From assembly GCA_963719205.1 (NCBI GenBank), contig CAVRAW010000001.1, forward strand, positions 258,639 to 322,638: 64,000 bases of DNA, written 5' to 3'. A model generated the notes under the pieces. It saw nothing but the letters and a program-made list of their open reading frames with translations, ran no database searches and was not told where the DNA came from. The DNA comes from Pirellulales bacterium (lineage in GTDB: Bacteria; Planctomycetota; Planctomycetia; Pirellulales; JADZDJ01). Of the stretch, positions 1,988 through 59,719 are shown piece after piece; positions within the stretch are counted from its first letter, which is position 1; each line of letters opens with the position of its first letter. Both the position numbers and the translations under genes were made by a program.

Positions 1988-4038
1988 ATGCTCGCCTATC
2001 TGGTGATTCGTGAAGGATCCAAATGGACCGACGTGTTCCGGCTCACGCCGGGGCAATCGGTCACGCTGGGCCGTGCGCCCACCAACCAGATTGTGATGAA
2101 AGACGATCGCTGCAGCCGCACGCACGCCGAAATCTTCTTCTCGCAAGACCGCTGGGTGCTTCGCGATTTGGAAAGCCGCAACGGCACCATCGTCGGCGCC
2201 GAGCGCGTGCGCGGCGACTACATGCTTCAGCCGGGCGACGTCATCCGCGTCGGTCATTCGCAGTTGGCCTTCGTGCACGATCTGGCGGCGGCCTTCCCCG
2301 ATTCGTCGGCCGCCCCGCCCAAGAAGGCGCCGGCATCCCCTGGAGAAACGGTGATCACCGTCGGTCACGACGACGAAGCGCACGTGATGTCGACTCCCAC
2401 CGACGAGCCGACGAAAATCACGCACCGCCGCGGCCAAACTCGTTTCCTCGCGCCCGTGGCCGAGGAAGACGCGGCCACGCCGAAGGTTGGCCGTGCCGCC
2501 GCGCAATTGTGCCGCCTGGCCTTCGAAATGGCCAAGATCCCCGACCTCCGCTTGTGCACCAAGGCCGCGCTGGACGGACTGTTTGAAGGCACGCAAGTCG
2601 ATGCCGGCGCGGTGCTGTTGCTGCCGCGCTTCATGACCACCGAACCCACCGCCACCGATTTGGAAGTGGTCGCGTCGCGCACCGATTCGCCCTTGAATTA
2701 TCAGCGCGTTTCCAACTTCGTGGCCACCACCGTGCTGCGCGAAGGGGAAGCGGTGCTGGCGCGCAACGTGATGGGCGATAGCGCACTGTCAATTCGCGAC
2801 AGCAAAGGCGAATTTCACGCCACCAGTATCTTGTGCGCACCCATCCGCAAAAGCGAACGTCCGCTGGGAGTCATCCACTTGTATTCCACCCAGCCCGATC
2901 GCATGCCCGATCCCGACGATCTGGAGTTCACCCTGGCCGTGGCCGATACGTTGGCCGTGGCTTTGGAGAATCTGAATCGCCGCTTGGAACTGGCCGAAGA
3001 TCTCACGCAAATCCGCGACGAAAACCTGCAATTGCGCGAACGGCTGGGCGTGGAAAGCGAAATCATCGGATCCAGCGTTGTGATGAACAAAGTACAGCGC
3101 GATATCGGCCGTGCCGCGCCCAATCGGGCCACCGTGCTGATCCGCGGCGAAAGCGGCGTGGGAAAAGAACTCGTCGCGCGGGCGATCCATTTTTCCAGCC
3201 CGCGCAGGAAGGGTCCGTTCTGCGTGCTCAATTGCGCGGCGCTTTCGGAAAGCTTGCTGGAAAGCGAACTGTTCGGCCACGAGCGCGGCGCATTTACCGG
3301 CGCCACCGAACGCAAGATCGGCAAGTTCGAAGGGGCCGACAGCGGCACGTTGATGCTGGATGAAATCGGCGAGATGAGCCCCACGATCCAGGCGAAATTC
3401 CTGCGCGTGTTGGAAGGGCATCCCTTCGAGCGCGTCGGCGGCAGCGAGCCCATTCAAGTGGACGTGCGGGTGATCGCCGCCACGAACCGCGATTTGGAAC
3501 GTGCCGTGGCCGAGGGCACTTTCCGCCGCGATTTATTTTTCCGCCTGCACGTGCTGGAAGTGTTTGTGCCGGCGCTGCGGAAGCATCCCGAGGATATCTC
3601 CGATCTATCGCAGCATTTCCTGCAGAAATTCAACGCGGAAACGGGGCGAAAAATCCGCGGCTTTTCCCGCGAAGCCATGGAGCACATGCTGCGCTATCGC
3701 TGGCCGGGCAACGTGCGCGAACTGAAAAACGTCGTCGAACGGGCCGTGGTGCTGGCGCCAGCGAGATCATCGACGTTGAGGATCTCACCTTGTCGAAACT
3801 GTCGACCGCCGGCGACACGGGCGATCTGATACCGTCGCAAGCCAACGCCTTCGAGCCCATGTCGTTGGACGAATTGGAACGGCGTCACATTCTGGCCACG
3901 CTCAATTCCAACAACTGGAACAAAAGCCAGACGGCACGCATCCTGGGCATCGAACGATCGACGTTGGATCGCAAGATCGATCGCTATCAGCTCGACGCCG
4001 ATTTGCCGCAACGGGGCCGCGCCGCCAGACCCTCCTGA
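1988..4038 (+). pseudogene. FHA-GAF-sigma54 AAA+ enhancer-binding protein, frameshifted just before its Fis-type HTH
   Basis: ORF 1988..3829 carries an FHA domain ([26 protein letters not shown]), a GAF-like region, and an AAA+ module with [14 protein letters not shown] and [19 protein letters not shown]. It then runs into a nonsense tail. The expected continuation [13 protein letters not shown]...RRHILATLNSNNWNKSQTARILGIERSTLDRKI is in the frame of ORF 3790..4038. The switch is at ~3755-3760 (ctgGCGCCagc) and needs +1 nt to repair. Confidence 0.85.
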
Positions 4039-4050
4039 ATCGATCGGGCC

Positions 4051-5133
4051 ATGAACCAAGGATCGATGCACGTGCTTCACCCGCGCCGCGCCTTCTCGCT
4101 TGTCGAATTACTGGTGGTCATCGCCATCATTTCGGTGCTCATCAGCTTGCTGTTGCCGGCGGTGCAGGCGGCGCGGGAAGCGGCGCGAAATCTCGAGTGC
4201 CGCAGCCATTTGAAACAGCTTGCGCTGGCCACGCTAAATTACGAAAGCTCGCACAGGTGCTATCCGCCGGCCGGACTGTGCGGCGAGCGAATCCAAGACT
4301 TCTACGAAGGACCGTTCAACCCGCGCGGCGGCCCCATGCTGAGTTGGGTCGTGCTGATCTTGCCGTTCATGGAAGAAACGGGCCTGTATCGCCAGTTCGA
4401 TCTGAAGCAAAGCGTCTTGCAACAGGCCGGCGACCCTCAGGCCGCCCCGCTGCCGATGATGACCTGCCCCAGCGACATCGCCCCGGGGCGATTCTTCTCG
4501 GACAGTTCCCTCACCGCTGGAAAGCGCTTTGCCAAGGGCAACTACGCCGCATTTGTCTCCCCCTACCACACCAGCTATGCCGACTTGTGGCCCGGCGGAT
4601 TAAGCGGCGCGCACCGTTATGCATTCAAAGACGTGCTCGACGGCGTCACGAATACGCTGCTGTTTTCCGAGGTGCGCACCCGAAGTCAGGAACAAGATCA
4701 GCGCGGCGCTCGGGCGCTTCCCTGGACCGGCTCCAGCTTGTTGGCCTTCGACATGCACGACGCAACTTACCCTGAAGTTAGCGACGATTTGAATCAGCGC
4801 TATCAACGCTCCGGGCTGCTGTTCAGCCCGGCGCCAGGCAGCATGGGCTCGACGCAGCCTCCCAACAATCTTGGGCCGAATCTGGACATGCTTTATGTTT
4901 GTCCCGATCCCTCCGACGCACAGCTCGACGGCATACCCTGCGGCGAGTTCGCCACCGGCGGCATGTGGGGATTTCTTTCCGCCGCGCCGCGCAGCCGCCA
5001 TCCCGGCGGAGTCAATGTGGTCTTCCTCGACGGACACGTCGGCTTGTTGAGCGACATCATCGACGAGCGAATCATGGCGTATCTGGTTTCCAGCAGCGAC
5101 GGTCAGACGATCGACATCTCGCAGGTCCGATGA
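4051..5133 (+). CDS. DUF1559 / H-X9-DG protein with prepilin-type N-terminal methylation motif
   Basis: The N-terminus AFSLVELLVVIAIISVLISLLLPAVQAAREAAR is a type IV pilin-like leader. The C-terminal HPGGVNVVFLDGHV is the H-X9-DG motif. An alternative start at ATG 4066 is preceded by aagga. Confidence 0.9.
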   Translation: MNQGSMHVLHPRRAFSLVELLVVIAIISVLISLLLPAVQAAREAARNLECRSHLKQLALATLNYESSHRCYPPAGLCGERIQDFYEGPFNPRGGPMLSWVVLILPFMEETGLYRQFDLKQSVLQQAGDPQAAPLPMMTCPSDIAPGRFFSDSSLTAGKRFAKGNYAAFVSPYHTSYADLWPGGLSGAHRYAFKDVLDGVTNTLLFSEVRTRSQEQDQRGARALPWTGSSLLAFDMHDATYPEVSDDLNQRYQRSGLLFSPAPGSMGSTQPPNNLGPNLDMLYVCPDPSDAQLDGIPCGEFATGGMWGFLSAAPRSRHPGGVNVVFLDGHVGLLSDIIDERIMAYLVSSSDGQTIDISQVR

Positions 5134-5149
5134 AAACGCGCGCCGTGCG

Positions 5150-5518
5150 TTGGTGCAAAGCAATGACACACGTCCGCTACATTTCGATCATTGCGATCAT
5201 CATCGGCGTGGCTTTGGTGAGCGCGCCTGGTGGTGGCCTGCGGTTGTCGGTGGCCATCGCGCCTGGTCCAAGGCGCAGGCCGCCGAATACGCCCAGGCGG
5301 CGGCCAATTATCACCGGCTGGCGCACGATCGATTGCAGCAGCCCGCCGTGGAATTAAATTCCGCGCAAGCGCGGTACACTCAGAATCGAGACGCGCTGGT
5401 GCAGGCCCGCTGCGCAGGCCAGTCGGCGGCGGCCGTCATGCAATGCCTGGGCATCACGACGGTTTTCGCAGGGCTGCTCGCCTACTCCGCGCTGCGGCAA
5501 GGCGATAAACCCGCCTAA
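5150..5518 (+). CDS. Small hypothetical membrane protein, probably frameshifted near its 5' end
   Basis: Third-position GC is high in the frame of ATG 5130/5163 (MTHVRYISIIAIIIGVALVSA, a TM helix) up to ~5225. After that it is high in the frame of ORF 5150..5518 (..WWWPAVVGGHRAWSKAQAAEYAQ...LGITTVFAGLLAYSAL). The switch is at gaGCGCGCCtgg (5221-5228). ATG 5130 overlaps the DUF1559 stop as ATGA. No family recognised. Confidence 0.4.
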   Translation: MVQSNDTRPLHFDHCDHHRRGFGERAWWWPAVVGGHRAWSKAQAAEYAQAAANYHRLAHDRLQQPAVELNSAQARYTQNRDALVQARCAGQSAAAVMQCLGITTVFAGLLAYSALRQGDKPA

Positions 5519-5542
5519 CCCAGTCTCCACAGCCGCTTCCCG

Positions 5543-5977
5543 TTACTCTGTCGGCGTCTGGTCCTTGTGGACGCTGGCCATGGTGGTGGTGGTTGCGGGT
5601 GTCGCTCGGGCGATGAATTCTTCAACCGCCTCGGGGCTTTGGGCGCCGATCATGCGATCCACATGCCAACCTTCGGCAGTCTTCGTGTAGATCACCAATT
5701 GCGGGATCCGAGTGCCCGACATTAACTGGTTCGCCAGCGGGCCTTCGCGATCGGTGTTCACATGCGCAAAGGCAACCTTGTTCAGATCGCCGCGGGCGGC
5801 CAACTTTGGCATCACCGTATTTCGCATTGTCTGACAGCCTGGGCACCAATCGGCGCCGACCAAAACGACCAACGGCTTGCCAGTATCCACGGTATCTTGG
5901 TATGCGGTCTTGTAGGTGTCGGCGCCGGTGGCGAGCAAACTCACCTGTAACAATGCGGTCAGGGCAATGCTATTCAC
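5543..5977 (-). CDS. Secreted thioredoxin-family protein
   Basis: A signal-peptide-like N-terminus (MNSIALTALLQVSLLATGA) is followed by ..VVLVGADWCPGCQ.. (a WCPGC active site) and a thioredoxin-fold length. Confidence 0.85.
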   Translation of the reverse strand: MNSIALTALLQVSLLATGADTYKTAYQDTVDTGKPLVVLVGADWCPGCQTMRNTVMPKLAARGDLNKVAFAHVNTDREGPLANQLMSGTRIPQLVIYTKTAEGWHVDRMIGAQSPEAVEEFIARATPATTTTMASVHKDQTPTE

Positions 5978-6585
5978 GGATAGATCTCCTAGTTGGCTTG
6001 AATCGTGACGATGGGTAAATCAACGATTCCCACGCCCGGCGAAGGGCGGACTCCGATGCCAGATTGGCCGGCGGCTGAAGGCTCCTTCCCGAATTGGTTG
6101 GCCACGGCGACGACCAGCCGAGAACGGCTGTGTGGTGGGCTCGTCGCGCTGTGCCTTCCGTCGTGGTTGGCTTCCTTCTGCGTTGTCTCCGTTCGACCAA
6201 CGTGCAAAACACTCGGATCAGGGAAGGCCGTAGTCTAAGTGGGTAAAATAAACGTGCAAGGGGGCGATGAGCAAAATTTAACGATTACATAAACTTTGTC
6301 GTCGCGCCAGCAGTGCGTACCACACCAGACACATCGCCTACACCGGATTACCCAGTTTCACCCATCGACCGCTTAACTCGGGAAGGTGTGATCGAATCCC
6401 TCAGGCGCACCTAGCCGAATCGACCGGTCTGGCGCGACCATACGGCAAAGCTTCGCTCATTGTGTCATGCGGATGTCGACCGATATAATCGTGCGGCTGA
6501 TTTGCACCCCATTTGCTGGGCCACGCGCCGAAAACGCCGATCACAGCCGGTTTTTTACGCACGGTTTACCAATCTTGGCTCTCCC

Positions 6586-7603
6586 ATGAAGCTCCGTGTC
6601 GGCCTGGTCGGCTTGGGTAAGGGATGGGAGGTGCGCCATCGTCCGGCGCTGCGAGCTCTGGGCGATCGCTTCGAAGTGCGTGCCGTCTGTGAACAGGTCG
6701 CACAGCGGGCCGAGCAAGCAGCCCGAGATTTCGGGGCCACAACCGTCGATGGTTTTCGCGCCCTGGCCAGCCGCGACGATATTGATGCGATTTTGATGTT
6801 GGCCGAACAGTGGTACGGATGGCTGCCAATTCTGGCCGCCTGCGAAGCCGGCAAGGCAATCTACTGCGCCACGCCGCTGCAACTCACTTTAGATGAAGCG
6901 CGACATCAAGCAGCGAGTAGATAAAGCCGGCGTTGCATTCATGGCGGAATTCCCGCGGCGGCAATACGCCGCCACGCTGCGACTGAAGGAACTGATCGCC
7001 ACGCGATTGGGCGAACCGCGATTGCTGTTCTGCCATCGCCGCGTTCCGGTCGGCGAGAATGTTCCCAAGCACGAGGACCCGAAGGACACAGGCCCCGACA
7101 CCGGCGACCTGGTGGAACTGGTCGATTGGTGTCATTACGTGGTCGGCCGCGAATCGACCTCCGTGCTGGGAATGATGCACAGCGCGTCGTCGGCCTCTTT
7201 CGGCGACGACTACCGGATGATGAGTCTCGATTTTTCTCCCCCGGGGCAACATGCCGGCACCGGCGTCGTGGCTCAAATCAGCTCCGGCTACTACATGCCG
7301 ATGGGCTGGGAAGAGGCGGTTTCGTTTCGCCCACCGCCGGCATTGCAGGTGGCCTGCGAGCACGGCATCGCATTTGTCGATTTGCCAGCCCAGGTCATCT
7401 GGTTCGATAAGGCCGGCCGGCATCAAGAATCGCTCGACACGGAACGGCCAGTCGGCGAGCAATTGCTCTCTCAGTTCCACCGGTCCGTTACCAGCCTGGT
7501 TCGCAATCCGGCCGGGCTGGAGGACGCCTACCGGGCGCTGGTCGTGGTTTTGGCAGCCCGCCGGAGCCATGAGGAAGGGCGTCGGATACCGCTGTCGTTT
7601 TGA
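6586..7603 (+). pseudogene. Gfo/Idh/MocA-family NAD(P)-dependent oxidoreductase, frameshifted
   Basis: MKLRVGLVGLGKGW..DIDAILMLAEQWYGWLPILAACEAGKAIYCATPLQLTLDEA (frame of ORF 6460..6924) continues as ..DIKQRVDKAGVAFMAEFPRRQYAATLRLKELIATRLGEP.. (ORF 6893..7603). The break is at gaaGCGCGac ~6898-6903. Confidence 0.8.
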
Positions 7604-7936
7604 GAGCTGCCGGCTTACTAGGCGTCTGGAACTACTTGAACCATCGGGGACGCCACCGCCAGGCGATCACCGCCTCGCTCTTATCTTAACGCCAGGCAAT
7701 AGGTTAACCGCGGTTTGAGCGGCGGACTTACCCGCGCCTTGTAAGCGTTGGAACATCTGCGACCACCTTGGGTCGAAAAACGCCAAAGATTTCGCAAAAA
7801 AGCTTGTGTCGCCTAATCCCGTTGGTATCATGGGGAAGCGTAAAAATTTCCGTAATCAGCATGCCTCCGAGAACCCAATTCTTCCCGGCGGCGGCCCGCC
7901 TTTTACATCCTGATTGACCCCAAACGAACAAACTGT

Positions 7937-8707
7937 ATGGAAACGGTTAGTAAGGTAATGCTCGTGACGAAGAATCGTACTCGCCATGCCTGTTTTCGGT
8001 TGGGGCTCTCGCTGTTTTGTCTGATTGCTGCAGGAACTTGGGCTAGTACGACGCAGGCCGACTGGATCGCCGGCTTTCCGCCGGAACCCGGCATCAGCCA
8101 GTCGCCCACCAACTTGGACATGACTCATTGGCTGTTGACCGTCAGCTATGACGGCGCCGGCAATTTCTCGGTATACAGCCAGTATCCGGGCGTAGGTGTG
8201 TTGAACAACTTCTCGGATCCCATTTACGACATCGGCCCGAATACGGCGCTGAACATCGCATTGCAGATCAATCCGACGACCGGCGCACCGATCAGCGGCA
8301 GCTTGATCATCACGGGCGACGCGTCAACGTATTACACGGCAAGCCCCACTGGCACCCTGTTGACCGGTGACATTTCGCAGTTCGGCTATGCCGAACCCGG
8401 CAATACCACCCCCGGTGCGGAACATTTCGAATTCCTGTTCACCACCACGGGCGGCGATCTGGCAGCTTGGTATCCATCGATCGCCATCAACTTGACTTTT
8501 GTCGAAATCAATTTCAGCGGCGTCTTCGGAAACACGCCGTTTGAAAACACCGATTCGTACAGCGCCCAGTCGGATACATTTTCTGGGCCGACGCCGGTGC
8601 CAGAACCCGCTTCGCTTTCCCTGTTGTGCTTCGGAGCGCTCGCCGTGTCGACGGGGCTGGGCATTCTGCGTGGTACCAAAGTGCTGCGTGGGACTCCAAT
8701 GAGATAA
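7937..8707 (+). CDS. PEP-CTERM sorting-domain protein
   Basis: There is an N-terminal signal peptide (..LSLFCLIAAGTWASTTQA). The C-terminal ..PTPVPEPASLSLLCFGALAVSTGLGILRG.. is a PEP motif plus TM helix plus basic tail. ATG 7958 is an alternative start. Confidence 0.8.
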   Translation: METVSKVMLVTKNRTRHACFRLGLSLFCLIAAGTWASTTQADWIAGFPPEPGISQSPTNLDMTHWLLTVSYDGAGNFSVYSQYPGVGVLNNFSDPIYDIGPNTALNIALQINPTTGAPISGSLIITGDASTYYTASPTGTLLTGDISQFGYAEPGNTTPGAEHFEFLFTTTGGDLAAWYPSIAINLTFVEINFSGVFGNTPFENTDSYSAQSDTFSGPTPVPEPASLSLLCFGALAVSTGLGILRGTKVLRGTPMR

Positions 8708-8852
8708 GTCGGCAGGTCGCCGCGCGGTAATCTTTTTACCCCCGTTCGGCGAATATCTCGAAAATAACCACGCCTCAAATAATCCACACCTTAGATTTGC
8801 TACCTTCGATTTTAGCTGTTTCATCTATTCTTCCAATCCCCGGAGTCGGGCC

Positions 8853-11800
8853 ATGTCTCTCCGCCACTCTGAACGTGTAGCCGTATGTCATCCCAAGAAG
8901 CGCCAATCAAAATCGCTTCGCTCGCCAAAGCGCTTTGCGGTCGAACCGCTTGAGCATCGCCACTTGCTCACGCTGTTGGGTGTCAGTCCCTCTTTCCCGA
9001 CGATCACGTACGACAGCACGGGCACGGTGACGTACAACGCGACGACGCACAATTTTGATTTAGCTGCCTCGCCGCTGCTTTTTAAAGCTAGCGCCGTTGC
9101 GCCGACACAAGTCGTCACCACGCCGCGCAGCTTCACGATCAACGTCCAGATCGATAACTCAGGAAACCTGATCCCAAATCTCTTGACGAGCGACTTGATC
9201 GTCACAGGAACCATCGTCGGCAATCCGGGGCTCAGCGGCACAATTCTGACCGCCAAAGTCATTGCAGTTGGTTACCAGTACACCGGCAGCGGCACCGACA
9301 ATTACGACTTCATCGCGATCCCCACCGGCGGCACGCTGTTTTCCATGTTCGCCGGTCAAGACGTCGGTATCACGGTCGCGTCGGCCAACTCGACCTTTAC
9401 GAATAACTTCAACGTCAATTTCAGCGGATTGGCCAAGGGAACCATCGGGTCGGTCCCGCTGTTCACCGGCAACATCAACGGCACGAAGTACAACGACATC
9501 ACCGGCAACGGCATCACCGGCGACGACACCGGCATGGGCGGAGTGACCATCAATCTGTTCCGCGATTTGGATAACAGCGGCACGCTCACCCCTGGCGACG
9601 GGCCGGCCATCGCCACCACGACCACCGCCGCAGGCACCGGCGCCTATTCCTTCGCGAACCTCGTCCCGGGCACCTACTTTGTTCAGGAAACTGTTCCCGC
9701 CGGCCAAACGCAGACCGCCGGCGGCACCTACACCGTGAACGTCACTTCCGGCAGCACTGCGAACAACATCAATTTTGCCGACTTCAAGAACATTTCAATC
9801 AGCGGCACCAAGTTCAACGATCTGACCGGCGACGGCTTCTCCGCCGACGACACGGGCTTGGGCGGCGTCACGATCAATCTGTATCTCAACGGTGGTTCGA
9901 CACCGGTGGCTTCAACGGTCACGGCGGCAGACGGATCCTATAGCTTCAGCAACCTCGGCCCGGGCACCTACTTCGTTCAGGAAGCGGTTCCGCCTGGCTC
10001 GACGCAGACAGGTGGAAACGCCGGCTACACGATTAATGCCGCCAGCGGCTCGAACTCGACCGGCAACAATTTCGGCAACTTCTCGAACGTTGCGATCACC
10101 GGCACCAAATTCAACGACATCACCGGCGATGGCTTTAGCGCAGATGATACCCCGTTGGCCGGCGTCACGATCAATCTGTATCTCAACGGCGGCAGCACGC
10201 CGATCGCTTCGACCGTGACCGCCGCCGATGGCTCCTTCGCCTTCAACAACCTTGGCCCGGGCACGTACTACGTTCAGGAAACGGTTCCGGCTGGTTGGAC
10301 GCAAACCGGCGGCACCGGTGGTTACACCATTACGACCACCAGCGGTTCGGGATCTTCGGGCAACAATTTTGACGATTTCCACAACATCTCGATCTCCGGC
10401 ACCAAGTTCAACGACCTCACCGGAAATGGCATCACCGGCGATGACACCGGCTTGGGCGGCGTGACCGTCAACTTGTATCTCAACGGCGGCTCGACGCCGG
10501 TCGCTTCGACCGTGACCGCAGCCGATGGCTCCTACAGCTTCACCAACCTCGGCCCCGGAAGCTACACGGTGCAGGAAGTCGTGCCCGCCGGTTCGACGCA
10601 AACCGCCGGCAACGCAGGCTACACGGTGAGCGCCACCAGTGGCTCGAATTCCTCGGGCAACAATTTCGCCAACTTCGCGAACATCTCGATCTCCGGCACC
10701 AAGTTCAACGACCTCACCGGAAATGGCATCACCGGCGATGACACCGGCTTGGGCGGCGTGACCGTCAACTTGTATCTCAACGGCGGCTCGACGCCGGTCG
10801 CTTCGACCGTGACCGCAGCCGATGGCTCCTACAGCTTCACCAACCTCGGCCCCGGAAGCTACACGGTGCAGGAAGTCGTGCCCGCCGGTTCGACGCAAAC
10901 CGCCGGCAACGCAGGCTACACGGTGAGCGCCACCAGTGGCTCGAATTCCTCGGGCAACAATTTCGCCAACTTCGCGAACATCTCGATCTCCGGCACCAAG
11001 TTCAACGACCTCACCGGAAATGGCATCACCGGCGATGACACCGGCTTGGGCGGCGTGACCGTCAACTTGTATCTCAACGGCGGCTCGACGCCGGTCGCTT
11101 CGACCGTGACCGCAGCCGATGGCTCCTACAGCTTCACCAACCTCGGCCCCGGAAGCTACACGGTGCAGGAAGTCGTGCCCGCCGGTTCGACGCAAACCGC
11201 CGGCAACGCAGGCTACACGGTGAGCGCCACCAGTGGCTCGAATTCCTCGGGCAACAATTTCGCCAACTTCGCGAACATCTCGATCTCCGGCACCAAGTTC
11301 AACGACCTCACCGGAAATGGCATCACCGGCGATGACACCGGCTTGGGCGGCGTGACCGTCAACTTGTATCTCAACGGCGGCTCGACGCCGGTCGCTTCGA
11401 CCGTGACCGCAGCCGATGGCTCCTACAGCTTCACCAACCTCGGCCCCGGAAGCTACACGGTGCAGGAAGTCGTGCCCGCCGGTTCGACGCAAACCGCCGG
11501 CAACGCAGGCTACACGGTGAGCGCCACCAGTGGCTCGAATTCCTCGGGCAACAATTTCGCCAACTTCGCGAACATCTCGATCTCCGGCACCAAGTTCAAC
11601 GACCTCACCGGAAATGGCATCACCGGCGATGACACCGGCTTGGGCGGCGTGACCGTCAACTTGTATCTCAACGGCGGCTCGACGCCGGTCGCTTCGACCG
11701 TGACCGCAGCCGATGGCTCCTACAGCTTCACCAACCTCGGCCCCGGAAGCTACACGGTGCAGGAAGTCGTGCCCGCCGGTTCGACGCAAACCGCCGGCAA

Positions 11801-42531: not shown

Positions 42532-43588
42532 GCGCAACCGATCAGGCCTTCATACGTGCGTACGCCGCGCCAGGCGCTCCGGCAATCTCCGCGCCGCTGA
42601 GAACAACGACAGCGACCAGCGAACATCCGGCAATCCTTTCCAGCCTGCCGACGCCGCAGGCCGGGGCCGCGGCCGCCCCTCAGGGACCTGCCATCAGCCC
42701 AGTTTCAAACTCGCGCACGACCAGCGTTCATATCGGTTTGGGTTCGGTGGTGCCGGCGCCGCACGCTGCGTTTGTGAGCAAGATCGCCGCCGCGATGGCC
42801 GCCGGGCAGCAGCAGACCACCAGCGGGACGACGTCGACCTTGTCTGCCGCGATGACCGGGCAAGCTTCTCGCGGGCCGCTCTCGGCATTCAGCAATCAAT
42901 TCTCGGCTGCCGCGACGACGCCGACCGCTCCGAGACCGGCGATGGAAATCGACGCGGCGCGCTGGCCGGCTACTTGCGAGCAACTGTTGTCGCGGCACGC
43001 GGATCGTTTCGCTCGCCTGGTGGAACAACTGCGCGGTGAAATTGCCTCGGGCGTGCGGACGCTGGCGATCACTGGGATGCACCGCCGCGAAGGGCGCACG
43101 ACATTGGCATTGTGCCTGGCGCGGCAACTGGCGGCGGCGAACATCAAGCTGGCGCTGGTGGACGCCGATTTCGCAAATCCGCGGCTGGCCAGCCAATTGA
43201 GCATCGGAGTGCATCGCGGCTGGGAAAGCGTCTTGTGCGGCGAGCAATCGCCCTGGGACGTGATGATCGAAGCGATGGCCGATGGCCTGGACTTATTGCC
43301 GCTGGGTGCGCCGGCGACGCCCGAGGAGGTTTCGATCGGCAGCTATCGCATTGCGGCCACGCTCAACGAATTGGACGAACACTATGACCTGGTGTTGATC
43401 GATGCGGGGCCGATCGCGCTGGACGGCGCCCCGCATTGGCTTTTCGACGCGGCTGCGGGAGTGCAAGCGATCATCCTGGCGTACGACGCGCGGCGGCAGC
43501 GCCCGGTCAAGTGGCTGCCGGATGTTTGCAATTGGCGCAAGCGGGCCTGCGGCAGTTGGGCCTGGCGGAAATGTTTGCCGACGAGTAG
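42528..43588 (+). pseudogene. CpsD/CapB-like (MinD/ParA-fold) P-loop protein with low-complexity N-terminus, frameshifted near the 3' end
   Basis: ..VRTLAITGMHRREGRTTLALCLARQLA..KLALVDADFANP..YDLVLIDAGP.. resembles the BY-kinase/ParA fold, but Walker A reads EGRTT instead of EGKST. After ..AYDARRQR the frame ending ..QVAAGCLQLAQAGLRQLGLAEMFADE with TAG at 43586-43588 is the sensible one. The listed ORF instead runs on to 43949 as Cys/Arg/Trp-rich nonsense across the next gene. Confidence 0.65.
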
Positions 43589-45748: not shown

Positions 45749-48700
45749 TTAGGCCGTGAAGTTTAAGTCGACGGTTAGATCGTCGAAATCGCTGTCGCCG
45801 CCGAAAATCTGATCCATGATGTGCAGTTGGGTCTTGCTGGGATCAACCTGCGCGTTTTCCGGCGAGGTCCAACGGAAGTGCTCGATGCTATTGGGATTGG
45901 CGGCATCGAACGAGAACAAAGCCACGGGGCCGCCGTTGGAGCTGTTGGCCGAATTGATTAGCAAAAAGTTTGAAGTCGTGCCGCTGGTGATGGCGTAGAA
46001 GGCCAAGTACTTGCCGGCCGGCACCGTGACGCTTTGCTGCGACCCGCCCGCGCTCCCCGAGCTAAACAACACTTTGGAATTCGCGCTGGCCAAGGCCGCG
46101 GCCGCGTAACCGTCGCTTCCGGGAGCGAGCGAACCGATGGCGCCGTCGAGCGAATCGACGAAGAACACGCCGATATCGCCCGGCGCGGTCGTCTTCTTGC
46201 CGGACCCAAGTGTGCCGTTCAAATTATCGGTCTTGTCGCCTGTGCCAGGGGCGTGCAACACCGGGGTGCCGGAGGTGCTGGCCGATTGACTCGACAGTTT
46301 CACGATGATCGTGGCATCGTTGAAGTCGCTGTCGCCCAGATTGAACAAGTCTTCCCAGTTGTATTGGCGCGGCCCGTGGTGGCATCGGCGATAATTTGCG
46401 TATGCTGCTTGGCGTCGGGATTGGCGGCCTGTATGCTGAAAAAAGCCAGCGGCGAGTCGGCTTTATTGTTGCCGTTGGGAGTATTCGACGGATTCTTCGC
46501 CAGGAAATTGGCCGTCGTGTTGTTTTGGATCAAGTAGAACACGACCATCTGGCCGGCTTGCAGCGTAATGGTCTTGCTGGCGCCGACCGACTGGCCTTTG
46601 CTGAACAGCACGACGCGCGTGGAACTGCTGAGCGCGGCCTGGGCATAGCCGGCGCTTCCGGGAGAAATCTCGCCAATCGAGCCATTGATCGAATCGGCGA
46701 TGAAATAACCCAACTCGTTGTTGTAGCCGGCTTTCTTCGCCGACCAGGTAATCGTGAGTTGCTGGGAAGTGCCTGGCGATCCGGGTACGACGTAGGCAGC
46801 GCCGCTATAGTTGGGAGCATAGGTGACCGAGAGCACCGTGGAGTCGGGACTCGTGCCGCCTGTCGTCGTGGCGATGGCAGTAATCGAATTCGCTCCAACC
46901 GCCAATTTTCCGGCGGGCAACGTGGCGGTGTAAACGCCGGAGCCGGTCGATGTTTCCGTGGCGGTGGCAATCACGATGCCGTTTAGTTTGAACTGCACGG
47001 TCGCGCCAGAAACCGCATTGACCGTCAGTTTGGGAGTGTTCGTTGTGACATAACCATTGCCGTCGAAGGGGCCGGTGTTGCTCGATGCATCGACGGCCAG
47101 GCCCGTCGGAGCGTCGGGAATATTCGGCGTCACCGTAAGTAAGAACGCCTCGGTGTTGTAGTTGGCTTGCGCATCTTCGGCGGTCGCGGAGCGCACGCCG
47201 GCCAAAAGATTTATGGTTCCGGAGAATCCAGCGCTAGGCGTCAGCGTCACCAGGCCGGTGTCTTGATCGATGCCAACAGTGACGTTGCTGGGCGCGCCGA
47301 ACGTCGTTGGATCGACCACCACATAAAACACGCCGTCGCCGATCGGGTCGTCGGAAGTGAGCGTGAAAGTTACCGGCGTGTCGGAAACGGTCGTTTGATC
47401 GCTGATTGGCCCGAGCGTGGGAGTTACGACGACGTCGGAATTGACAGTGATCGAAAACGCCTTGGTATTGTAGTTAGCCTGCACATCTTCGGCCCCGGCC
47501 TGTCGCACGCCGGCCAGCAGATGCAGCACCCCGGTGAAGCCGGAATTCGGCGTGACGATGACCTCTCCCGTGCCTTGATCGACACTGACGGTGGCATCCG
47601 TCGGCGCGGCAAACGTGTCCGCGTCGACCACCGTGTATGCCACGCCCACACCCGCCGTGTCAGTGGAGGTCAGCGTGAAATTGACGGGGTTCGTTCCCAC
47701 TGTTTCCTGGTTGCTCACCGGTCCCAGCGTCGGATTCAGCGCGGAGTCGAGCGTCACCGTCAACGTGAAGGGCAAAGTGTCGTAATACGATTTGACATCG
47801 CTGTCGGCGGAGTCGGCCCGCACACCGGCCAAGAGATTGATGGTTCCGATGAATCCGGCATCGGGCGTCAGCGTTACCACGCCCGTGGACTGATCAATGC
47901 TCACCGTCACATTGGCGGGCGCCAAAAAGGTGTTGGGATCGATCACGACGTAATCGACGCCTACGCTGGAGTCGTTTTTGCGTGACACCAGGGTGAAGTT
48001 TTTCGCCGTATTCTCGGTTGTCGTTTGATTCGACACCGGGCCCAACGTCGGAGGATTGACAACGACGTCGACGCCGAAGGTTTGCGTGGCGGTCTCGTTG
48101 TCGCCGTTGGTGGCGGTGACCGTGATCGTGACGCCGTGGTTGACGAAGTCGGCGTCGGTCGAGGTAACTCGCAGCACCGCATCCTGCGTGTCGTTGATGA
48201 TCCGGGCCAAGGTGATCGTAATGGGGTTAACGGGATGGCTCACTTCGGGACTGCCATCTTGGTTGGTAAATATCGAGCTGTTCTCTACGGTCGTCGACAT
48301 CATCTTTTCAAACGTGTCGAAGCCACTCACCAATTGTCCAAAGATCGTGTAACCGCTGTTGAGAAACTGCGGCATGCGGGCCAAAGTGATCGGGGCGGTT
48401 GTGCCCGCTCCGTCAATGGCGGTAACGAAAAACTGGGCATCATTGGAATTTGCCGTTCCGGCATTGGCCATGGCCAACAAACCCGGACTGAAGAAATTCA
48501 GTGAATCAACGATTTCGTTGGCGAAAGTTGTGCCGCTGCTGCCGTTATTTTGGGCCACAAACCCATCCAGCACTCGAAAGAATTCCTTGCCGGAGTAGAA
48601 ACTGTCGCCCACGAGCGATTCGATCCGCGCCGCCGTGGTCGGCGTCAGGTCTTCAAATAGATGGAAGATCAATATGTCGCTAAACGCCTGACCGTTGCTA

Positions 48701-49017
48701 TCGGTGCCTGAGACGGTCAGTTCCAAGCTCTGGCTCGTTGGCGAAACCAATTCCAAAGACAGGGGCGCGGACAGATCGCTGACTTCAAACGAATAGCTAA
48801 TCGGCCCGCCTAGGCTATCGACGCCCGTCAGCGGCACCAGCACCGATTGGCCGCCCGGCACTTGAATGTCGTGGAGCGAGCCCAAGGAAACCGAGAGCAT
48901 TTGCCGCAGCTCAAGCTGTTCCAAATAGGATCGGCGCGAATTGGCACGGGAGCGTTGGAGCTGTTTTCGACCGCGGCGAGGCGCGCGTTTGGAACGCCCA
49001 TTCCAAGAAAGTCTCAT
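45749..49017 (-). pseudogene. Large secreted protein: cyclophilin-type PPIase + three Ig-like modules + two DUF4114-like C-terminal domains, frameshifted
   Basis: The N-terminus is basic with EQLELRQMLS. The cyclophilin core is ..FFRVLDGFVAQNNG..GLLAMANAG.ANSNDAQFFVT..YTIFGQLVSGFD.. ORF 46300..49017 ends ..ANPDAKQHTQIIADATTGR. The sensible continuation ..YNWEDLFNLGDSDFNDATIIV... (the end of the first DUF4114-like domain, then a second one) is in ORF 45749..46348. The break is at ccGCGCCaat (plus 46365-46373). Confidence 0.8.
47128..48054 (-). repeat. Three diverged tandem modules of about 105 codons inside the PPIase protein
   Basis: PTLGPVSNQ(T/E)T...NFTL.S....VGV.Y.V.D..TF.AP...TVS.DQ.TG.V.(L/V)TP..GF.G...LLAGVR... 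occurs three times, at aa ~322-428, 429-531 and 532-630. Confidence 0.6.
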
Positions 49018-54336: not shown

Positions 54337-54873
54337 ATGTCAGTCCACCGTCCGCACGAAACGCTCTACCGCTTCTTCGCCGGCCTCACCGAGTACGCCT
54401 TCCACACTCGGCTGGGCGTGCCCGACACCAGGCTGACCGACTATCTGACCGATCTGCTGGCGCGTTTCGTGCGCTACGACGCACTGGTAAGTCTGCGAAG
54501 CCTCTCCGGCCAACGATTAGTGGCCGTGGCCGACATGCTGCTGGAGGCGGATGCCCGCGTGGGGGACGCCCGCCGCGAAGCGCATCGGCACATCGGCGAT
54601 TACACGCTGTTTTGGACCGGCGTGTATCCCGAGACCTTGCAGCGCGGCAAACGCGGCCACCGCAGCGATCCGTTTGTCGATTACTGCGAGCACGGCAAGC
54701 GCGCTTATCGCATCGCCAGCACCATTCCGACCAGCAAGCCTGACGACAAAGGCGAAGTGCTCGAGCGCCTGAGCCACGACTTCGAGTTGTGCGTGTACGG
54801 CCTGAGCGAAGTGCGCCGCGAATGGGAGCGCCGCGACGGCGATACGCCGGCTGGACCGATTGTGCTGGATTAG
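54337..54873 (+). CDS. Conserved-looking hypothetical protein
   Basis: I start at MSVHRPHETLYRFFAGLTEYAFH.. (ATG 54337) within ORF 54280..54873. The frame is clean. No family recognised. Confidence 0.6.
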   Translation: MSVHRPHETLYRFFAGLTEYAFHTRLGVPDTRLTDYLTDLLARFVRYDALVSLRSLSGQRLVAVADMLLEADARVGDARREAHRHIGDYTLFWTGVYPETLQRGKRGHRSDPFVDYCEHGKRAYRIASTIPTSKPDDKGEVLERLSHDFELCVYGLSEVRREWERRDGDTPAGPIVLD

Positions 54874-54946
54874 CTCACCAATCCTTTGGTGACCAGCATG
54901 AACACGTCTTCCAGCGTCGGTTCTTTGTCGGTGAAGCTGCGCAGCT

Positions 54947-55795
54947 TTACCCGCGCTTGGTGAGTTCATCTAAGAGCCGCGCGACAATCTGATCGTCGGC
55001 TTCCAATTCCACCGTCACGCGGTGGTCTTCGACCTGCAGGCCGCGCGTTTCGGGCATGCTGCGAATGATCGAGAGGCCCGTTTCTAGGTTGTCGATGAAT
55101 TTGATTTCCACGAGCCGGTTGCGGCGGATGCGGCGGTAGACTTCGTCGATTGGGCCGTGCAACAACAACTGGCCGCGCTCGATGATGCCGATCGAGGTGC
55201 AGCAGTCGGCCAGCTCGCTGAGGATGTGGCTGGAAATTAGGATGGTTTTGCCCATGCGGCGCAGTTCCTTCAACAGCGCCTTGAATTCCAAGCGCGCGCG
55301 CGGGTCCAAGCCGCTGGATGGTTCATCGAGAATCAGCACCGGCGGGTCGTGAACCAAGGTTTTCGCCAGGCACAGCCGCTGCTTCATGCCGCGCGAGAGG
55401 CTGTTGACAAAATCGTCGCGCTTTTGCGTGAGATCCAATAACTCAAGCACGTCAGTGATGATCTGTTTTCGCTTGCTGTGCGGGATCTGGTACGCAACGG
55501 CGAAGAAATCCAAGAACTCCCAGACCTTCATTCCGTCGTACACGCCGAAGTTCTCAGGCATGTAGCCGACGACGCGTCGCACGCCCAGTGGATCGCGCGA
55601 GACGCTGTGGCCGGCCACGACGCCGTCGCCGTGCGTGGCCTTCAGCAGAGTGGCCAAAAAGCGAATCGTGGTGCTCTTGCCCGCCCCGTTGGGCCCGATG
55701 AATCCGAACAACTCCCCCGCCCCGACGTTGAGAGTCAGGTCTTCGACGGCAGTCAGGTCGCCGTAGCGTTTGGTGAAGTTGATCAGTTCAATCAT
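54947..55795 (-). CDS. ABC transporter ATP-binding protein; last ~25 codons out of frame (reconstructed stop 54870-54872)
   Basis: Walker A GPNGAGKST, signature LSRGMKQRL, Walker B VLILDEPSSGLD. The ORF ends ..LLDELTKRG*, but the shifted frame reads VKLRSFTDKEPTLEDVFMLVTKGLVS*, the canonical ABC C-terminus. The break is at aaGCGCGGGta (plus 54948-54957). Confidence 0.9.
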   Translation of the reverse strand: MIELINFTKRYGDLTAVEDLTLNVGAGELFGFIGPNGAGKSTTIRFLATLLKATHGDGVVAGHSVSRDPLGVRRVVGYMPENFGVYDGMKVWEFLDFFAVAYQIPHSKRKQIITDVLELLDLTQKRDDFVNSLSRGMKQRLCLAKTLVHDPPVLILDEPSSGLDPRARLEFKALLKELRRMGKTILISSHILSELADCCTSIGIIERGQLLLHGPIDEVYRRIRRNRLVEIKFIDNLETGLSIIRSMPETRGLQVEDHRVTVELEADDQIVARLLDELTKRG

Positions 55796-58154
55796 GGGGA
55801 TGGGACGAGGGGCGAGGGACGAGGGACGAGAAATTGTCGCGCCCGCTAGCGATATCGTCGCGGCTGTTCACATCGGGAAGTGGCTCCGGCAGCGGCGGTT
55901 CTTGCAAGGAGGCAACCACCAGCGTCGCTCCGCGCGCCGTTTGCGCCGCTGCCGGATCGACCGTCAGTCCGGGCTGCGGCTGGGGAATCAATCCTATCAG
56001 CCGGAGCTCCCCGGGCTGGAGATGTCGCTTGCCGCGCACGAGATCGGCCAGTCGATCGAAGTTGAAGCGAGGTATCCCAGCTTGGCCCGCGCCGCTCATA
56101 TCAAGCGACCATTCAAAATCCGGGTCGGCCTTGTGAAAGTTCAACTTGGTTCGACCACCGCTGGGTAAATCGCTAATCCATGCAATCTGATAATCGTCCT
56201 CCGGCGTTCGTCGAATGGCCGCGGCTCGTTCGATTGTGAATCTTGTTTGATTCCATAGTTCGCCGCCGATTGCGTCGTAATTGATCCCGCCTCCCATATC
56301 AACCATCTCTTCGCTATGCAGCAGGCCGGTTGAATTTGACGAAACGGCAAAGCTGGACAGCACTGCGCTGGGGTCGTCTTGGTAGGTGACGACGTGGCTC
56401 GTTTGGCCGGGGAGCATCGTAAAGTCGGGATCGGCGGAAAACGGCAGGATGAACGTGCCCGGTTCCGCCGCATGCACGTCGTAGTTTGTGGAAAGGGAGG
56501 TGTACAAGGCGAGGTAGCGCGTGAGAAAAGCTCGCGGGTAATCGTGGTTGATTTCAAGCACATCGATTTCGGTTTGGGAGCGGGCAAAACCAATATCCAG
56601 TTGTGCCAGCCGGACGACCACGACCGTGCTGACTAGAGCGATGACGGGGGCGGCGATCCAGGCCCATTCCACGCGGCGGATGGCCCAGAACAGCAACCAA
56701 TTTAGCGGCACCAACACAATCAAATACGTCGCCAGCGACCAGGTGACGAAATCGCGCTTCGGGATCACGATGCCGGCCGCTTCTTGCAGCACGGCGCGCG
56801 CGGCGTTGGCCACATCGCTGAAATCGGTCCAGCCGCCGATGCCGGCTTCGGACGCTTCGCTTTCCGCCGCGTCGGGCTTTTTCGAGTCGAGACGCCAATC
56901 GCGGCAGAGATAGCGCACGTTGGTCACCCAGATTGGATCGGTCACCGATTGGGCGGCATCGGCCCAGCTAACAGTCAGCGCGCCCATCAGTCCTGTTGCT
57001 GAAAACTTGCGCGGCGGGCGCAGCAACAGGCAGCCGTTCAAAAAACCATCGAAGCTGGGCCAATCCCAGAGCTCGCGTTCGGTAAGGCGAAAAGATGTGA
57101 CGACCATTCGTCCGCGGCCCACTTGCCGCTGAGCGACCAGATCGCCTGTGCCGGCAACGAACTGCGCACCAGGCTGCAGCTTCAATGTGATGCCGTTCCA
57201 TGCAGTAACCGCCGCCAGAGATTTTCGGGCGTGCTTGTTTACTGGCAATGTCCAATGCTGGTTCAACGGCGCCAACGTCTCAGCGGAAAGTTTCTTCGAT
57301 TCGCCCACCAGCGCCGGCAAGTAATCGTGCAGAAAAGTATTGCCGCTAAGCTGGTCCAAACTTTTCGGCCCACTGATGATGAGCTCCCCACCCTGATGCA
57401 GCCAATCGACCAGCGCCTGCTGCTGCCGTTCATTCAGCAGTTGCGGATCGACATCATCCCATATCACGTAAGCTGTGCTGCTCCACTGGAGCGAGCTGGC
57501 CGGCAGCGGCAATGGCGCCTTCAGCGGCGGCGCGACCACTTGATAGTAATTCAACGCATCGCCGCCGTGCGGCGCGCGGATCGAATCGAGCGCCTCCAGC
57601 GGCCGGTAACGATCTGCTTCACCGGCCAGCACTACCAGGAAATATTGGTACGGCCTCATCAGCGAGAGCGGCTCGGCACCTAAGGCAGTTTGCACACCGC
57701 CGCGGCCACTCAAATCCGTCGCCAACCACGGGCGCGTGCAATCGCCTGGAACGAAAAGTGGAAATTCCAGCCGCTTGGGTTGCCCTTTTGGCAAAACCAC
57801 CCGCCGGACAATTTGCAGCTGATACGGCGTCTGCAGCAAATCAACTGCATTGCCGGCGTCGGTCTGCTTCACGCTTGCCTCAAGCTCGCCGAGGAAATCG
57901 AAGTTGTTAGCCTTCGTTTCCAATACGACGCTGGACCAATGGCCGGGCTTGATCAGGCGCGGACTCCCATCGGCACTATTTACATCATGCGGAAAAACGC
58001 TGAGCTTGATCGGCTCGAAGTCGGGCTTGGCCGTTTGAGTTTTCGGTTGTTCCTTTGGATCATCGGCTCTCGCGCTGCGCGGCGATTGCGCACAAACCGA
58101 CAAACAACATCGCCGATAGCATCGCCAGCCGAGAGTACATCGCGGACCGCTCAT
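55788..58154 (-). CDS. Large multi-pass membrane protein coupled to the ABC ATPase; real N-terminus (ATG 58140) lies in another frame
   Basis: Its stop overlaps the ABC ATG by 8 nt. TM helices include ..FVTWSLATYLIVLVPLNWLLFWAI..WIAAPVIALVSTVVVVRL.. The stretch ..VIWDDVDPQLLNERQQQALVDWLHQGGELIISGP.. loosely recalls GldG/ABC-auxiliary domains (tentative). The listed N-terminus MSGPRCTLGWRCYRRCC is nonsense. The frame from ATG 58140 gives a signal peptide MYSRLAMLSAMLFVGLCAIAAQ. The switch is at cagCGCGagagcc (plus ~58066-58078). Confidence 0.7.
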   Translation of the reverse strand: MSGPRCTLGWRCYRRCCLSVCAQSPRSARADDPKEQPKTQTAKPDFEPIKLSVFPHDVNSADGSPRLIKPGHWSSVVLETKANNFDFLGELEASVKQTDAGNAVDLLQTPYQLQIVRRVVLPKGQPKRLEFPLFVPGDCTRPWLATDLSGRGGVQTALGAEPLSLMRPYQYFLVVLAGEADRYRPLEALDSIRAPHGGDALNYYQVVAPPLKAPLPLPASSLQWSSTAYVIWDDVDPQLLNERQQQALVDWLHQGGELIISGPKSLDQLSGNTFLHDYLPALVGESKKLSAETLAPLNQHWTLPVNKHARKSLAAVTAWNGITLKLQPGAQFVAGTGDLVAQRQVGRGRMVVTSFRLTERELWDWPSFDGFLNGCLLLRPPRKFSATGLMGALTVSWADAAQSVTDPIWVTNVRYLCRDWRLDSKKPDAAESEASEAGIGGWTDFSDVANAARAVLQEAAGIVIPKRDFVTWSLATYLIVLVPLNWLLFWAIRRVEWAWIAAPVIALVSTVVVVRLAQLDIGFARSQTEIDVLEINHDYPRAFLTRYLALYTSLSTNYDVHAAEPGTFILPFSADPDFTMLPGQTSHVVTYQDDPSAVLSSFAVSSNSTGLLHSEEMVDMGGGINYDAIGGELWNQTRFTIERAAAIRRTPEDDYQIAWISDLPSGGRTKLNFHKADPDFEWSLDMSGAGQAGIPRFNFDRLADLVRGKRHLQPGELRLIGLIPQPQPGLTVDPAAAQTARGATLVVASLQEPPLPEPLPDVNSRDDIASGRDNFSSLVPRPSSHPHD

Positions 58155-58232
58155 CGGACAGAGGCAGAAACGCCGTTAGCCACTAATCTTGAGTGTATCT
58201 CGGCGGAGCGCGGCGTGGAATCACGCGGGCTT

Positions 58233-59719
58233 TCAACCAGCCCGCTGCTCAGTTATCTCGATCGCCTTGAGCAGTCCGCGCGCCTTGTTCAGCGTTTCCT
58301 GCTATTCTTCGCGCGGCTGGCTGTCGGCCACGATGCCGGCGCCAGCCTGCACGTAAGCTTTGCCATCCTGCACCACGATCGTGCGCAGGGCGATGCAGGT
58401 ATCCATGTTGCCGCTGTAATCGACGTAGCCGACGGCCCCGGCGTAGGGCCCGCGGCGGCAGGGCTCCAATTCGTCGATGATTTCCATGGCCCGCACTTTC
58501 GGCGCACCGGAAACGGTGCCCGCCGGCAAGCAGGCCCGCAGGGCGTCGAAGGCATCCTTCCCGTCGGCCAGCATGCCGCTGACGTTGCTGGTGATGTGCA
58601 TCACGTGGCTGTAGCGTTCGATGGTCATCACGTCGGTCAGTTCCACCGAGCCGTAGCGGGCCACGCGGCCGACGTCGTTGCGGCCCAAATCGACCAGCAT
58701 CACGTGCTCGGCGCGCTCTTTGGGGTCGGCCAACAATTCTTTGGCCAACTCGCGATCTTCTTCTTCGGTTTGACCGCGGCGGCGTGTGCCGGCCAGCGGG
58801 CGCACCGTGACTCGCCCATCGACCACGCGCACCATCACCTCCGGCGAACTGCCGACCAGCGTAACGCTCGGCGTGCGCAGATAGAACATGAACGGGCTGG
58901 GGTTCACCACCCGCAGCGTGCGATAGATCTCAAACGGATGCGAACGAACGGCCAACTCGAGCCGCTGGCTGATGACGACCTGAAAAATGTCGCCGGCGCG
59001 GATGTACTCGACGCACTTTTCCACCGCGCGCTCGAAATCGGCCTGCGAGAAGTTCGACTGGTAGGCGATTTTCGAGTCGCCGCCGGTGCTGATATCGACC
59101 GGCGCTAGGTCGGTCGCCGGCGACGATAATCGTGCCACTAACTGGTCGACGCGCGCCGCAGGCATCGTCGTAGGCGGCTCGCAAGTCGCCTTGGTCTACG
59201 CGAGCCATCGCAATGGCCACGATCGTTTTGCTCACATTGTCGAAGACCACCATGCGGTCGTAGAAGGCGAACGAAAGATCGGGCAGGATGGCGATCGTCC
59301 GGCGGCGCGTTGGGCAACCGCTCGGTATAGCGCACCACGTCGTAACCGGCGTAGCCGATGGCTCCGCTCACAAACGGCGGCAAGTCGGGCAGTCGCACGG
59401 CCCGCAAGGCGTCGACGCGGCGGCGCAATTCTTCGATCGGATCGGGCGAATCGAATTCCTCGGTCTTGCCTCCGCGGCGAAAGGTTACATGATTGCCGCG
59501 GGCTTCGATCTCTTGGAAGGGTTCGGCCGTAAGGAAACTGTAGCGGCCGACTTTTTCGCCGCCGACCACGCTTTCGAACAAGCAGGCCGACGAGCCGGCG
59601 TCGAGCTTGTGGAAGGCCGAAACCGGCGTGAGCGCGTCGCCGATCAGCCGTCGATAGACGGGCACCAGGTGCACGCCGCGCGCCAGTTGGGAAAAAGTTG
59701 CGAAGTCGGGGTAGTGCAT
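58233..59719 (-). pseudogene. trpE: Anthranilate synthase component I with two frameshifts and an in-frame TAG
   Basis: Three collinear ORFs sit in three frames. 59719-59138 gives MHYPDFATF..LFESV..GRYSF..YDVVRYTERLP. 59253-58930 gives ..LPDLSFAFYDRMVVFDN... 59165-58302 gives ..[74 protein letters not shown] at 58302-58304 is followed in frame by QETLNKARGLLKAIEITEQRAG and TGA at 58233-58235. Confidence 0.9.

Follow-up and report, generated by a model that had tools for sequence, protein, structure and literature searches.

Gene Content and Interrupted Reading Frames

We analyzed a 64-kb stretch of contig CAVRAW010000001.1 from a Pirellulales bacterium, hereafter the window, in which many genes are split between reading frames at or close to the tetranucleotide GCGC. 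The names of orthologues affiliate it with the Pirellulales/Lacipirellulaceae, and its G+C content is 60%. According to Pfam, the window carries ordinary chromosomal genes (dnaA, argG, metH, trpE/B/A, fpg, coaD, mcsA/B, and htrA), together with genes encoding a sigma54 activator, a SulP transporter, BBP7 barrels, and DUF1559 proteins. GCGC occurs 716 times, that is, once per 89 nt or 3.4 times per 300 nt, close to the density of about 4 per 300 nt estimated in a preliminary description of the window. That description had listed about 17 breaks within single proteins and read them as systematic consensus errors of long-read sequencing.

The breaks are present in the sequence as given and are statistically solid. 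A codon-usage Viterbi pass changes frame, without a stop followed by a start, at almost every listed site. In addition, Pfam assigns parts of one domain or architecture to different frames in the sigma54 activator (AAA lid and HTH_8), the Gfo/Idh/MocA oxidoreductase (N-terminal and C-terminal parts of GFO_IDH_MocA), the HEAT lipoprotein (HEAT_2 matches in both frames), the HtrA protease (Trypsin_2 and PDZ), the SulP transporter, the PPIase protein (DUF4114 among the domains concerned), and TrpE (Anth_synt_I_N and Chorismate_bind). SulP is the tightest of these Pfam cases: positions 1–315 of the Sulfate_transp profile end at 33701, while positions 313–380 begin at 33691 in the other frame, together with STAS. 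In the Ser/Thr kinase, the Pkinase match covers the profile only as far as position 202 of 263; a conserved DPNRRF stretch follows in another frame. Counting shift directions independently from the window, we found eight sites that need +1 nt and nine that need +2 or −1 nt, the same tally as before. The halves are also as clean as described, none of them containing an in-frame stop.

Pinning of the Junctions by a Close Relative

A homology search with a chimeric protein retrieved the SPFH protein P0121, which has 459 aa, the repaired length of the corresponding gene of the window, and is 95% identical. P0121 lies on a 4.25-Mb contig, ena:ERZ25039539:contig_488, which is OY970289.1, the chromosome 1 of a metagenome-assembled genome (MAG) designated Pirellulales bacterium isolate MFD05442.bin.c.2. 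Three loci of OY970289.1 (L007, L006, and L008) are collinear with window positions 1–12836, 15157–35643, and 40862–60987, respectively, with 89–93% nucleotide identity in DNA alignments. Junctions were set by the gap list of these alignments and not by a motif search; at about 90% identity, the exact lost base can be named only where a shared codon can be assumed. A frame-breaking indel was found in, or at most 3 nt from, every listed interval covered by OY970289.1. In this way, 16 of the 17 breaks were pinned by alignment, and the remaining one, in a secreted protein, was placed tentatively by codon score. We detected no same-species short-read sequence in the searched collections; their best hit for an intact SulP has 86% identity and lies on 3-kb contigs only. 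Synteny via SulP orthologues of 76% identity was also tried and abandoned, as the neighborhood is not conserved.

Among the 15 comparable genes, 12 are single intact open reading frames (ORFs) in OY970289.1; the BBP7 protein, the kinase, the SPFH protein, the HEAT protein, and HtrA are each encoded there by one ORF. When the pinned sites are patched, the window yields 15 uninterrupted full-length ORFs. Twelve patched proteins align end to end with those of the relative, ten of them without gaps, at 90–99.7% amino-acid identity. The SulP transporter, the product of the first gene of the 41.6–44.5 kb operon, and the membrane partner of an ABC ATPase each align in two pieces (about 83–98% identity) because the relative is itself frameshifted in these genes.

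The sigma54 activator gene (1988–4038, plus strand, break within 3755–3760) lacks one G between 3758 and 3759, in the context GCGC[G]C, where square brackets enclose missing bases. All five relatives have one base more at this site, L007, L031, and L009 reading GCGCGC, and the patched protein of 683 aa is 98.4% identical to that of the relative, gap-free. In the gene of a small membrane protein (5130–5518, plus strand, 5221–5228), a T is missing between 5227 and 5228 (GCGCC[T]TGG). L007 keeps this T and reads VSAPWWWP in a single frame; L031 is without the same base, yet its substitution pattern indicates the same upstream frame. The Gfo/Idh/MocA oxidoreductase gene (about 6583–7603, plus strand, 6898–6903) has lost a GC from GCGCGCG between 6897 and 6898. 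Four relatives have two bases more, L007 reading GAA GCG CGC GAC, and the patched protein (340 aa) is 99.4% identical, gap-free. The region that holds these genes (region A) was also compared with L031, L009, L011, and L015, with agreement at the sites in the sigma54 activator and the oxidoreductase. The BBP7 barrel gene (16049–17174, plus strand, 16479–16486) likewise lacks a GC between 16482 and 16483 (TTGCGC[GC]ATG), and its patched 375-aa product is 98.4% identical, without gaps, to an intact 375-aa ORF in L006.

For the secreted protein gene (about 17900–19014, minus strand, 18023–18030), a 1-nt deletion is proposed at CGGCGC^AC on the basis of the codon score and an internal repeat: the shifted tail is 11 nats better in codon score and repeats an upstream helix motif. 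The segment 17825–19150 that contains this gene has no counterpart in OY970289.1 or in any fetched locus. In OY970289.1, which lacks these 1.3 kb, the kinase gene and a LOG-like (Lysine_decarbox) gene are adjacent; the segment is an insertion or deletion between close relatives. The Ser/Thr kinase gene (19152–20305, minus strand, 19292–19299) lacks one base between 19292 and 19293 (gene strand GCGCC[G]GAT). Its patched product of 385 aa is 99.7% identical, gap-free; the intact kinase ORF of the relative encodes 367 aa. In the gene of the SPFH protein with a YbjN-like C-terminal part (26463–27841, minus strand, 26925–26932), one base is missing between 26926 and 26927 (gene strand GCGCC[G]CGATGG). 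More than 100 SPFH orthologues are single proteins of 445–487 aa, and the patched protein, which like P0121 has 459 aa, is 97.4% identical, gap-free. The HEAT lipoprotein gene (28747–29458, plus strand, 29239–29245) carries instead an extra G at 29243 (GGCGC{G}TCGG, the surplus base in braces), the removal of which leaves a protein of 236 aa that is 95.3% identical to the product of the relative's intact 235-aa ORF.

The HtrA protease gene (31338–32403, plus strand, 32059–32066) lacks two bases between 32061 and 32062 within CCGCGCTGG; at this position, the relative, whose HtrA is one 350-aa ORF, reads ACC GCC CGC TGG. In the SulP transporter gene (32661–34494, plus strand, 33690–33700), a CA is missing between 33695 and 33696 (GGCGCA[CA]GACG). 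The pattern N..(A/S)G(A/G)xTQWSG is found in 117 of 120 SulP orthologues, and the window has a single base in place of the x codon. Most of these orthologues have 611 aa, the length of the window's protein after addition of two bases. The first gene of the 41.6–44.5 kb operon (41586–42531, plus strand, 42102–42114) has undergone two 1-nt deletions (GCGCT[C]GCGCG[N]CT). The relative has one base more between 42106 and 42107, and the second deletion lies near 42112; the relative is itself frameshifted by a base missing a few nucleotides further on. Once repaired, this gene overlaps the next one at its end by an ATGA stop/start (42528–42531), an arrangement typical of translational coupling. The second operon gene (42528–43588, plus strand, 43494–43504) encodes a protein with a partial match to the BcsQ/ParA-type ATPase families CBP_BcsQ and AAA_31. 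It lacks one base between 43497 and 43498, just 5' of AGCGCC, and its patched product (353 aa) is 96.0% identical, gap-free.

The gene of the PPIase/DUF4114 protein (45752–49017, minus strand, 46365–46373) lacks one base between 46365 and 46366 (gene strand GCGCC[C]AAT); the patched protein of 1089 aa is 92.5% identical, gap-free. In the ABC ATPase gene (about 54872–55795, minus strand, 54948–54957), the missing base lies between 54950 and 54951 (gene strand GCGCGG[C]GTA). A conserved stretch at the C-terminus, with LEDVF as its last residues, is encoded in the other frame, and the patched protein (308 aa) is 96.4% identical, gap-free. Between the ABC ATPase gene and the gene upstream of it (window 54871/54873), OY970289.1 carries about 630 nt (L008 14111–14746) that are not in the window. 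The gene of the membrane partner (55788–58140, minus strand, 58076–58085) has lost two bases between 58080 and 58081 (gene strand GCC[GT]GCGC), 3 nt outside the interval given earlier. Here, a clean signal peptide, MYSRLAMLSAML, is encoded in one frame and the mature sequence ADDPKEQ... in another, and the relative is broken 6 nt away through a −1 of its own. Finally, trpE (58302–59719, minus strand) is broken twice by surplus bases: +1 at about 59155 (59149–59160, GACGCGC{G}CCGC on the plus strand) and +1 at about 59289 (59286–59292), 15 nt from GCGC. Without bases 59155 and 59289, its product has 471 aa and is 96.8% identical, gap-free.

The 16 pinned lesions are therefore seven −1, five −2, one double −1, and three +1 events, with eight −1 events if the secreted protein is counted. 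The alignments bear out the placement of the breaks in the preliminary description, all junctions lying inside its intervals or at most 3 nt off. They only partly agree with the lesions that it had proposed. It had explained the nine −1/+2 breaks by loss of a GC unit, which holds at 6898 and 16482 and may hold at 32061. Elsewhere it fails: CA was lost at 33695 and GT/AC at 58081, the first operon gene has two 1-nt deletions, and three of the nine breaks are 1-nt insertions (29243, 59155, and 59289). The loss of one C or G that it had proposed for the +1 breaks does not apply at 5228, where a T is lost.

Association of the Junctions with GCGC

In the window, 15 of the 16 pinned junctions lie at most 2 nt from a GCGC, compared with 9.9% of random coding positions, and seven touch one (5.6% of random coding positions). 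The binomial probability at a distance of at most 3 nt is 1.7e-13. The link with GCGC noted earlier is hence recovered from alignment positions free of the reader's choice, and in the resampling of distances that had been called for, the observed mean was reached in 0 of 20,000 draws. Control tetranucleotides do not exceed the background within 3 nt of the 16 junctions: GGCC and CCGG 0, GCCG 1, GATC 2, GCGG and CCGC 3 each, and CGGC 4. CGCG scores 10 of 16, always in overlap with GCGC. A GCGC without a CGCG within 3 nt is found at five junctions and the reverse at none, the numbers of such sites being 326 and 253, respectively. When both assemblies are taken together, 20 of 21 events fall within 3 alignment columns of GCGC, as against 14% of coding columns. 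As an internal control, natural intergenic indels between the two genomes do so in about 20% of cases (14% for random coding positions).

Two refinements of the motif were rejected. A wholesale collapse of (GC)3 is not apparent, since GCGCGC is only mildly low (57 observed versus 78 expected) and similarly low in relatives. Judging from junction contexts and motif counts, a longer motif (GCGCC, or NarI or HaeII sites) shows no enrichment over plain GCGC.

Frameshifts in Related Nanopore Assemblies

OY970289.1 contains five further GCGC-adjacent frameshifts of its own. The dnaA gene, intact in the window (23718–25223), is frameshifted in the relative (L006 12588–14108) by a 2-nt loss in GGCGCGCGAG (GGCGCG[CG]AG). 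The resulting product of 506 aa has a nonsense C-terminus and is devoid of the DnaA C-terminal domain. As biology, a disrupted dnaA on a chromosome assembled as one contig is not credible. The relative's SulP is split into 149 + 462 aa, its first operon gene is also broken, and a DUF1559 gene is interrupted at a point at which four other genomes match the window. Its membrane partner gene shows a −2 after TTGCGC in addition to a −1 adjoining GCGC. Upstream of dnaA, the non-coding stretch 23209–23715 is unusually rich in indels between both genomes, with about a dozen gaps of 1–21 nt; it may correspond to the origin region.

Breaks recur at the same sites in independent MAGs: that of the sigma54 activator in L012, that of the small membrane protein in L031, and that of the first operon gene in L008. 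We compared sigma54 orthologues in 23 MAG loci other than the window. They are frameshifted in 4 of 6 loci from the Microflora Danica (MFD) dataset, twice in L031, versus 0 of 17 others (Fisher p = 0.0017). The 17 other loci are mostly short-read by their contig names (SPAdes NODE_, MEGAHIT k141_), although at least one (L024) carries an Oxford Nanopore (ONT) label. Each sigma54 junction in the MFD loci contains a GCGC or has one no further than about 7 nt away. GCGC-adjacent frameshifts were observed in the sigma54 or GFO orthologues of other MFD Pirellulales MAGs (L009, L011, L012, L015, and L031). As the same genes are frameshifted across MFD Pirellulales MAGs, the problem seems to be clade-wide in this dataset. 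In L024, an ONT-labelled MAG of another project, the sigma54 and GFO genes are both intact.

The MFD MAGs are Nanopore-only and were assembled with Flye 2.9.2 (--meta --nano-hq), followed by one round of Medaka 1.8.0 with the r1041 sup g615 model; circular contigs were kept as separate bins (PMC12313526). From its nearest relatives and its error pattern, the contig of the window is very probably Nanopore-only as well.

Selection on the Broken Halves

In the repaired frame, the codons downstream of the breaks differ from those of the relative by 204 synonymous and 41 non-synonymous changes (1419 codons), and upstream of the breaks we counted 508 synonymous and 123 non-synonymous differing codons. 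This unchanged ratio indicates that the apparently dead halves are still under selection in the repaired frame. We saw only indels and no nonsense lesion in the broken genes. The relaxed selection and mixed lesion types of genuine pseudogenes are thus both missing. A programmed frameshift would be conserved in orthologues; 12 of the 15 genes are in frame in OY970289.1. In the remaining three, the breaks of OY970289.1 adjoin GCGC at positions other than those of the window, save for a base shared in the first operon gene. The tracts at the junctions comprise 2–3.5 GC units, in place of the long tract of a contingency locus, and the broken genes include trpE, htrA, sulP, and the kinase gene rather than surface or variable functions.

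Two other features of the window were recorded. An ORF of 2312 aa (8853–15791) holds a tandem array at 9770–13693, composed of 13.2 copies of a 297-nt (99-aa) unit with 89% identity. A similar array is present in OY970289.1, and the ORF stays unbroken in spite of many GCGC sites. In the 1.2-kb gap between argG and metH (36438–37657), which lies outside the fetched loci of the relative, the codon model gives no coding signal. A 337-aa ORF in this gap (36510–37523) is without Pfam match, and no tRNA or Rfam hit was found there.

Origin of the Frame Breaks

These data lead us to conclude, with a probability of about 0.88, that the breaks are systematic long-read consensus indels near GCGC and that the genes are intact in the organism. 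That they are consensus errors of a long-read metagenome assembly and not biology is very likely in itself. The recurrence of GCGC-adjacent frameshifts in independent Nanopore-only MAGs, with none in the 17 other loci, argues for the same systematic consensus error that the preliminary description had put forward. In the process we envisage, one or two bases would be lost, or one gained, on assembly and polishing of the contig from long reads. Such errors would hit the palindrome GCGC itself or a position no more than about 2 nt away, at only a few percent of its sites, and would recur at the same sites across independent assemblies.

It is very unlikely that the lesions are genuine recent frameshift mutations produced by a GC-specific mutational process. 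In E. coli mutagenesis, −1 and −2 frameshift hot spots occur at G runs and at alternating GC (NarI-type) sequences. The lesions do stand in the sequence as given, and −2 events in GCGCGC together with −1 events beside C or G runs resemble this spectrum. However, those hot spots are rare, induced, and known from a reporter gene, whereas in the window one third of the genes is affected, selection is intact, and the pattern tracks the sequencing platform, lesions of the sigma54 gene appearing in the MFD Nanopore assemblies only. Such a process would require about one third of the genes on the 64 kb to be dead, including trpE, htrA, and sulP, as well as dnaA in the relative. Yet purifying selection is unchanged in both halves, no nonsense or larger lesions accompany the indels, and the same positions are broken in different species. 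Even less probable, to the point of being negligible, are programmed ribosomal frameshifts or phase-variable contingency loci. These would account for a clean open frame in each half and for a short repeat-like motif at the junction, and simple-sequence contingency loci also change frame at a short repeat within coding sequence. However, at the same positions the close relative has ordinary orthologues that stay in frame, and the shifts go in both directions and differ in size. The tracts, of two or three units, are far too short, and housekeeping enzymes are affected. Contingency loci had already been judged unlikely, an opinion that we share.

The cause of the errors is less certain than their nature. 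We lean slightly toward a base modification at GCGC as the trigger. An HhaI-type methyltransferase would modify GCGC on both strands and distort the pore signal over neighboring bases; as the palindrome would carry the modification on both strands, the polisher might find no clean opposite-strand reads to correct by. The main alternative is a pure context error, that is, a miscount by the basecaller or polisher in alternating G/C at modest metagenome coverage, with no DNA modification involved. We consider it possible, though distinctly less probable. Heteropolymers and local high G+C are listed as separate classes of error for R10.4.1 assemblies (PMC12392509), 10 of the 15 GCGC-adjacent junctions lie where GCGC overlaps CGCG in (GC) runs of at least 2.5 units, and two losses are clean GC units. 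A miscount of this kind fits less well with the five junctions that have GCGC without CGCG within 3 nt, with none of the reverse, and with the scores of 0/16 for GGCC and CCGG, which have the same composition. Moreover, T, CA, and GT, none of them a repeat unit, are among the lost bases, and the single-contig relative, presumably well covered, still has such errors.

For the modification at GCGC, published data offer a precedent. Methylation is reported to interfere with bases up to about 5 bp away, at only some occurrences of a motif (PMC12392509), a pattern that fits indels 0–3 nt from GCGC at about 2–3% of sites. Motif-specific Nanopore errors caused by modifications survive polishing (PMC10687267). 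Several observations nevertheless weigh against our interpretation. In published cases, the Nanopore errors linked to modifications consist mostly of substitutions and not of indels (PMC10687267). One junction, at 59289 in trpE, lies away from GCGC, which confirms the earlier remark that one trpE site was less clear, and only about 2–3% of GCGC sites are hit (16 junctions for 596 sites in the aligned part). Among the ORFs of the window, the only sequence surveyed in this respect, Pfam detects no DNA methyltransferase. GCGC is not avoided (716 observed versus 720 expected under a Markov model) and therefore gives no sign of a cognate restriction enzyme. We found no direct report of GCGC as a Nanopore error motif in the literature searched, and the main text of Nanomotif mentions neither GCGC nor Planctomycetes.

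Relation to Known Errors and Significance

As assembly artefacts, the breaks belong to a general kind that is already known, and their interest is practical and not biological. Like the modification-mediated consensus errors of Nanopore assemblies (PMC10687267; PMC12392509; PMC11610573), they recur at a short motif, a few positions from it and at only some of its occurrences; they are lineage-specific and survive the pile-up and one Medaka round. They differ in that the published errors are mostly substitutions, whereas only frameshift-causing indels are noticeable here, and in that the modification is a proposal in our case. Nanopore homopolymer indels (PMC9262707; PMC10687267) also split genes into two clean ORFs through small indels in long-read-only MAGs. 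By contrast, the junctions of the window touch runs of three or four bases at most, and the predictor is GCGC.

About one third of the genes in the window would be annotated as fragments or pseudogenes, and the same applies to related Nanopore-only MAGs, as illustrated by the split dnaA. The error carries over into gene counts, pseudogene estimates, pathway calls (for example, for the trp operon), and protein databases that rest on such MAGs. A clustering of frameshifts at a single palindromic tetranucleotide may serve as a simple diagnostic to flag a motif-specific consensus error. The error motif is also a cheap hint at a modification and is worth checking in the raw signal. More speculatively, and with a probability that we regard as low, the errors could be the footprint of a clade-wide GCGC modification in soil Pirellulales that the Nanopore models of 2023 handled badly. 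Given the small indels in place of the usual substitutions, such a modification may differ from plain 5-methylcytosine.

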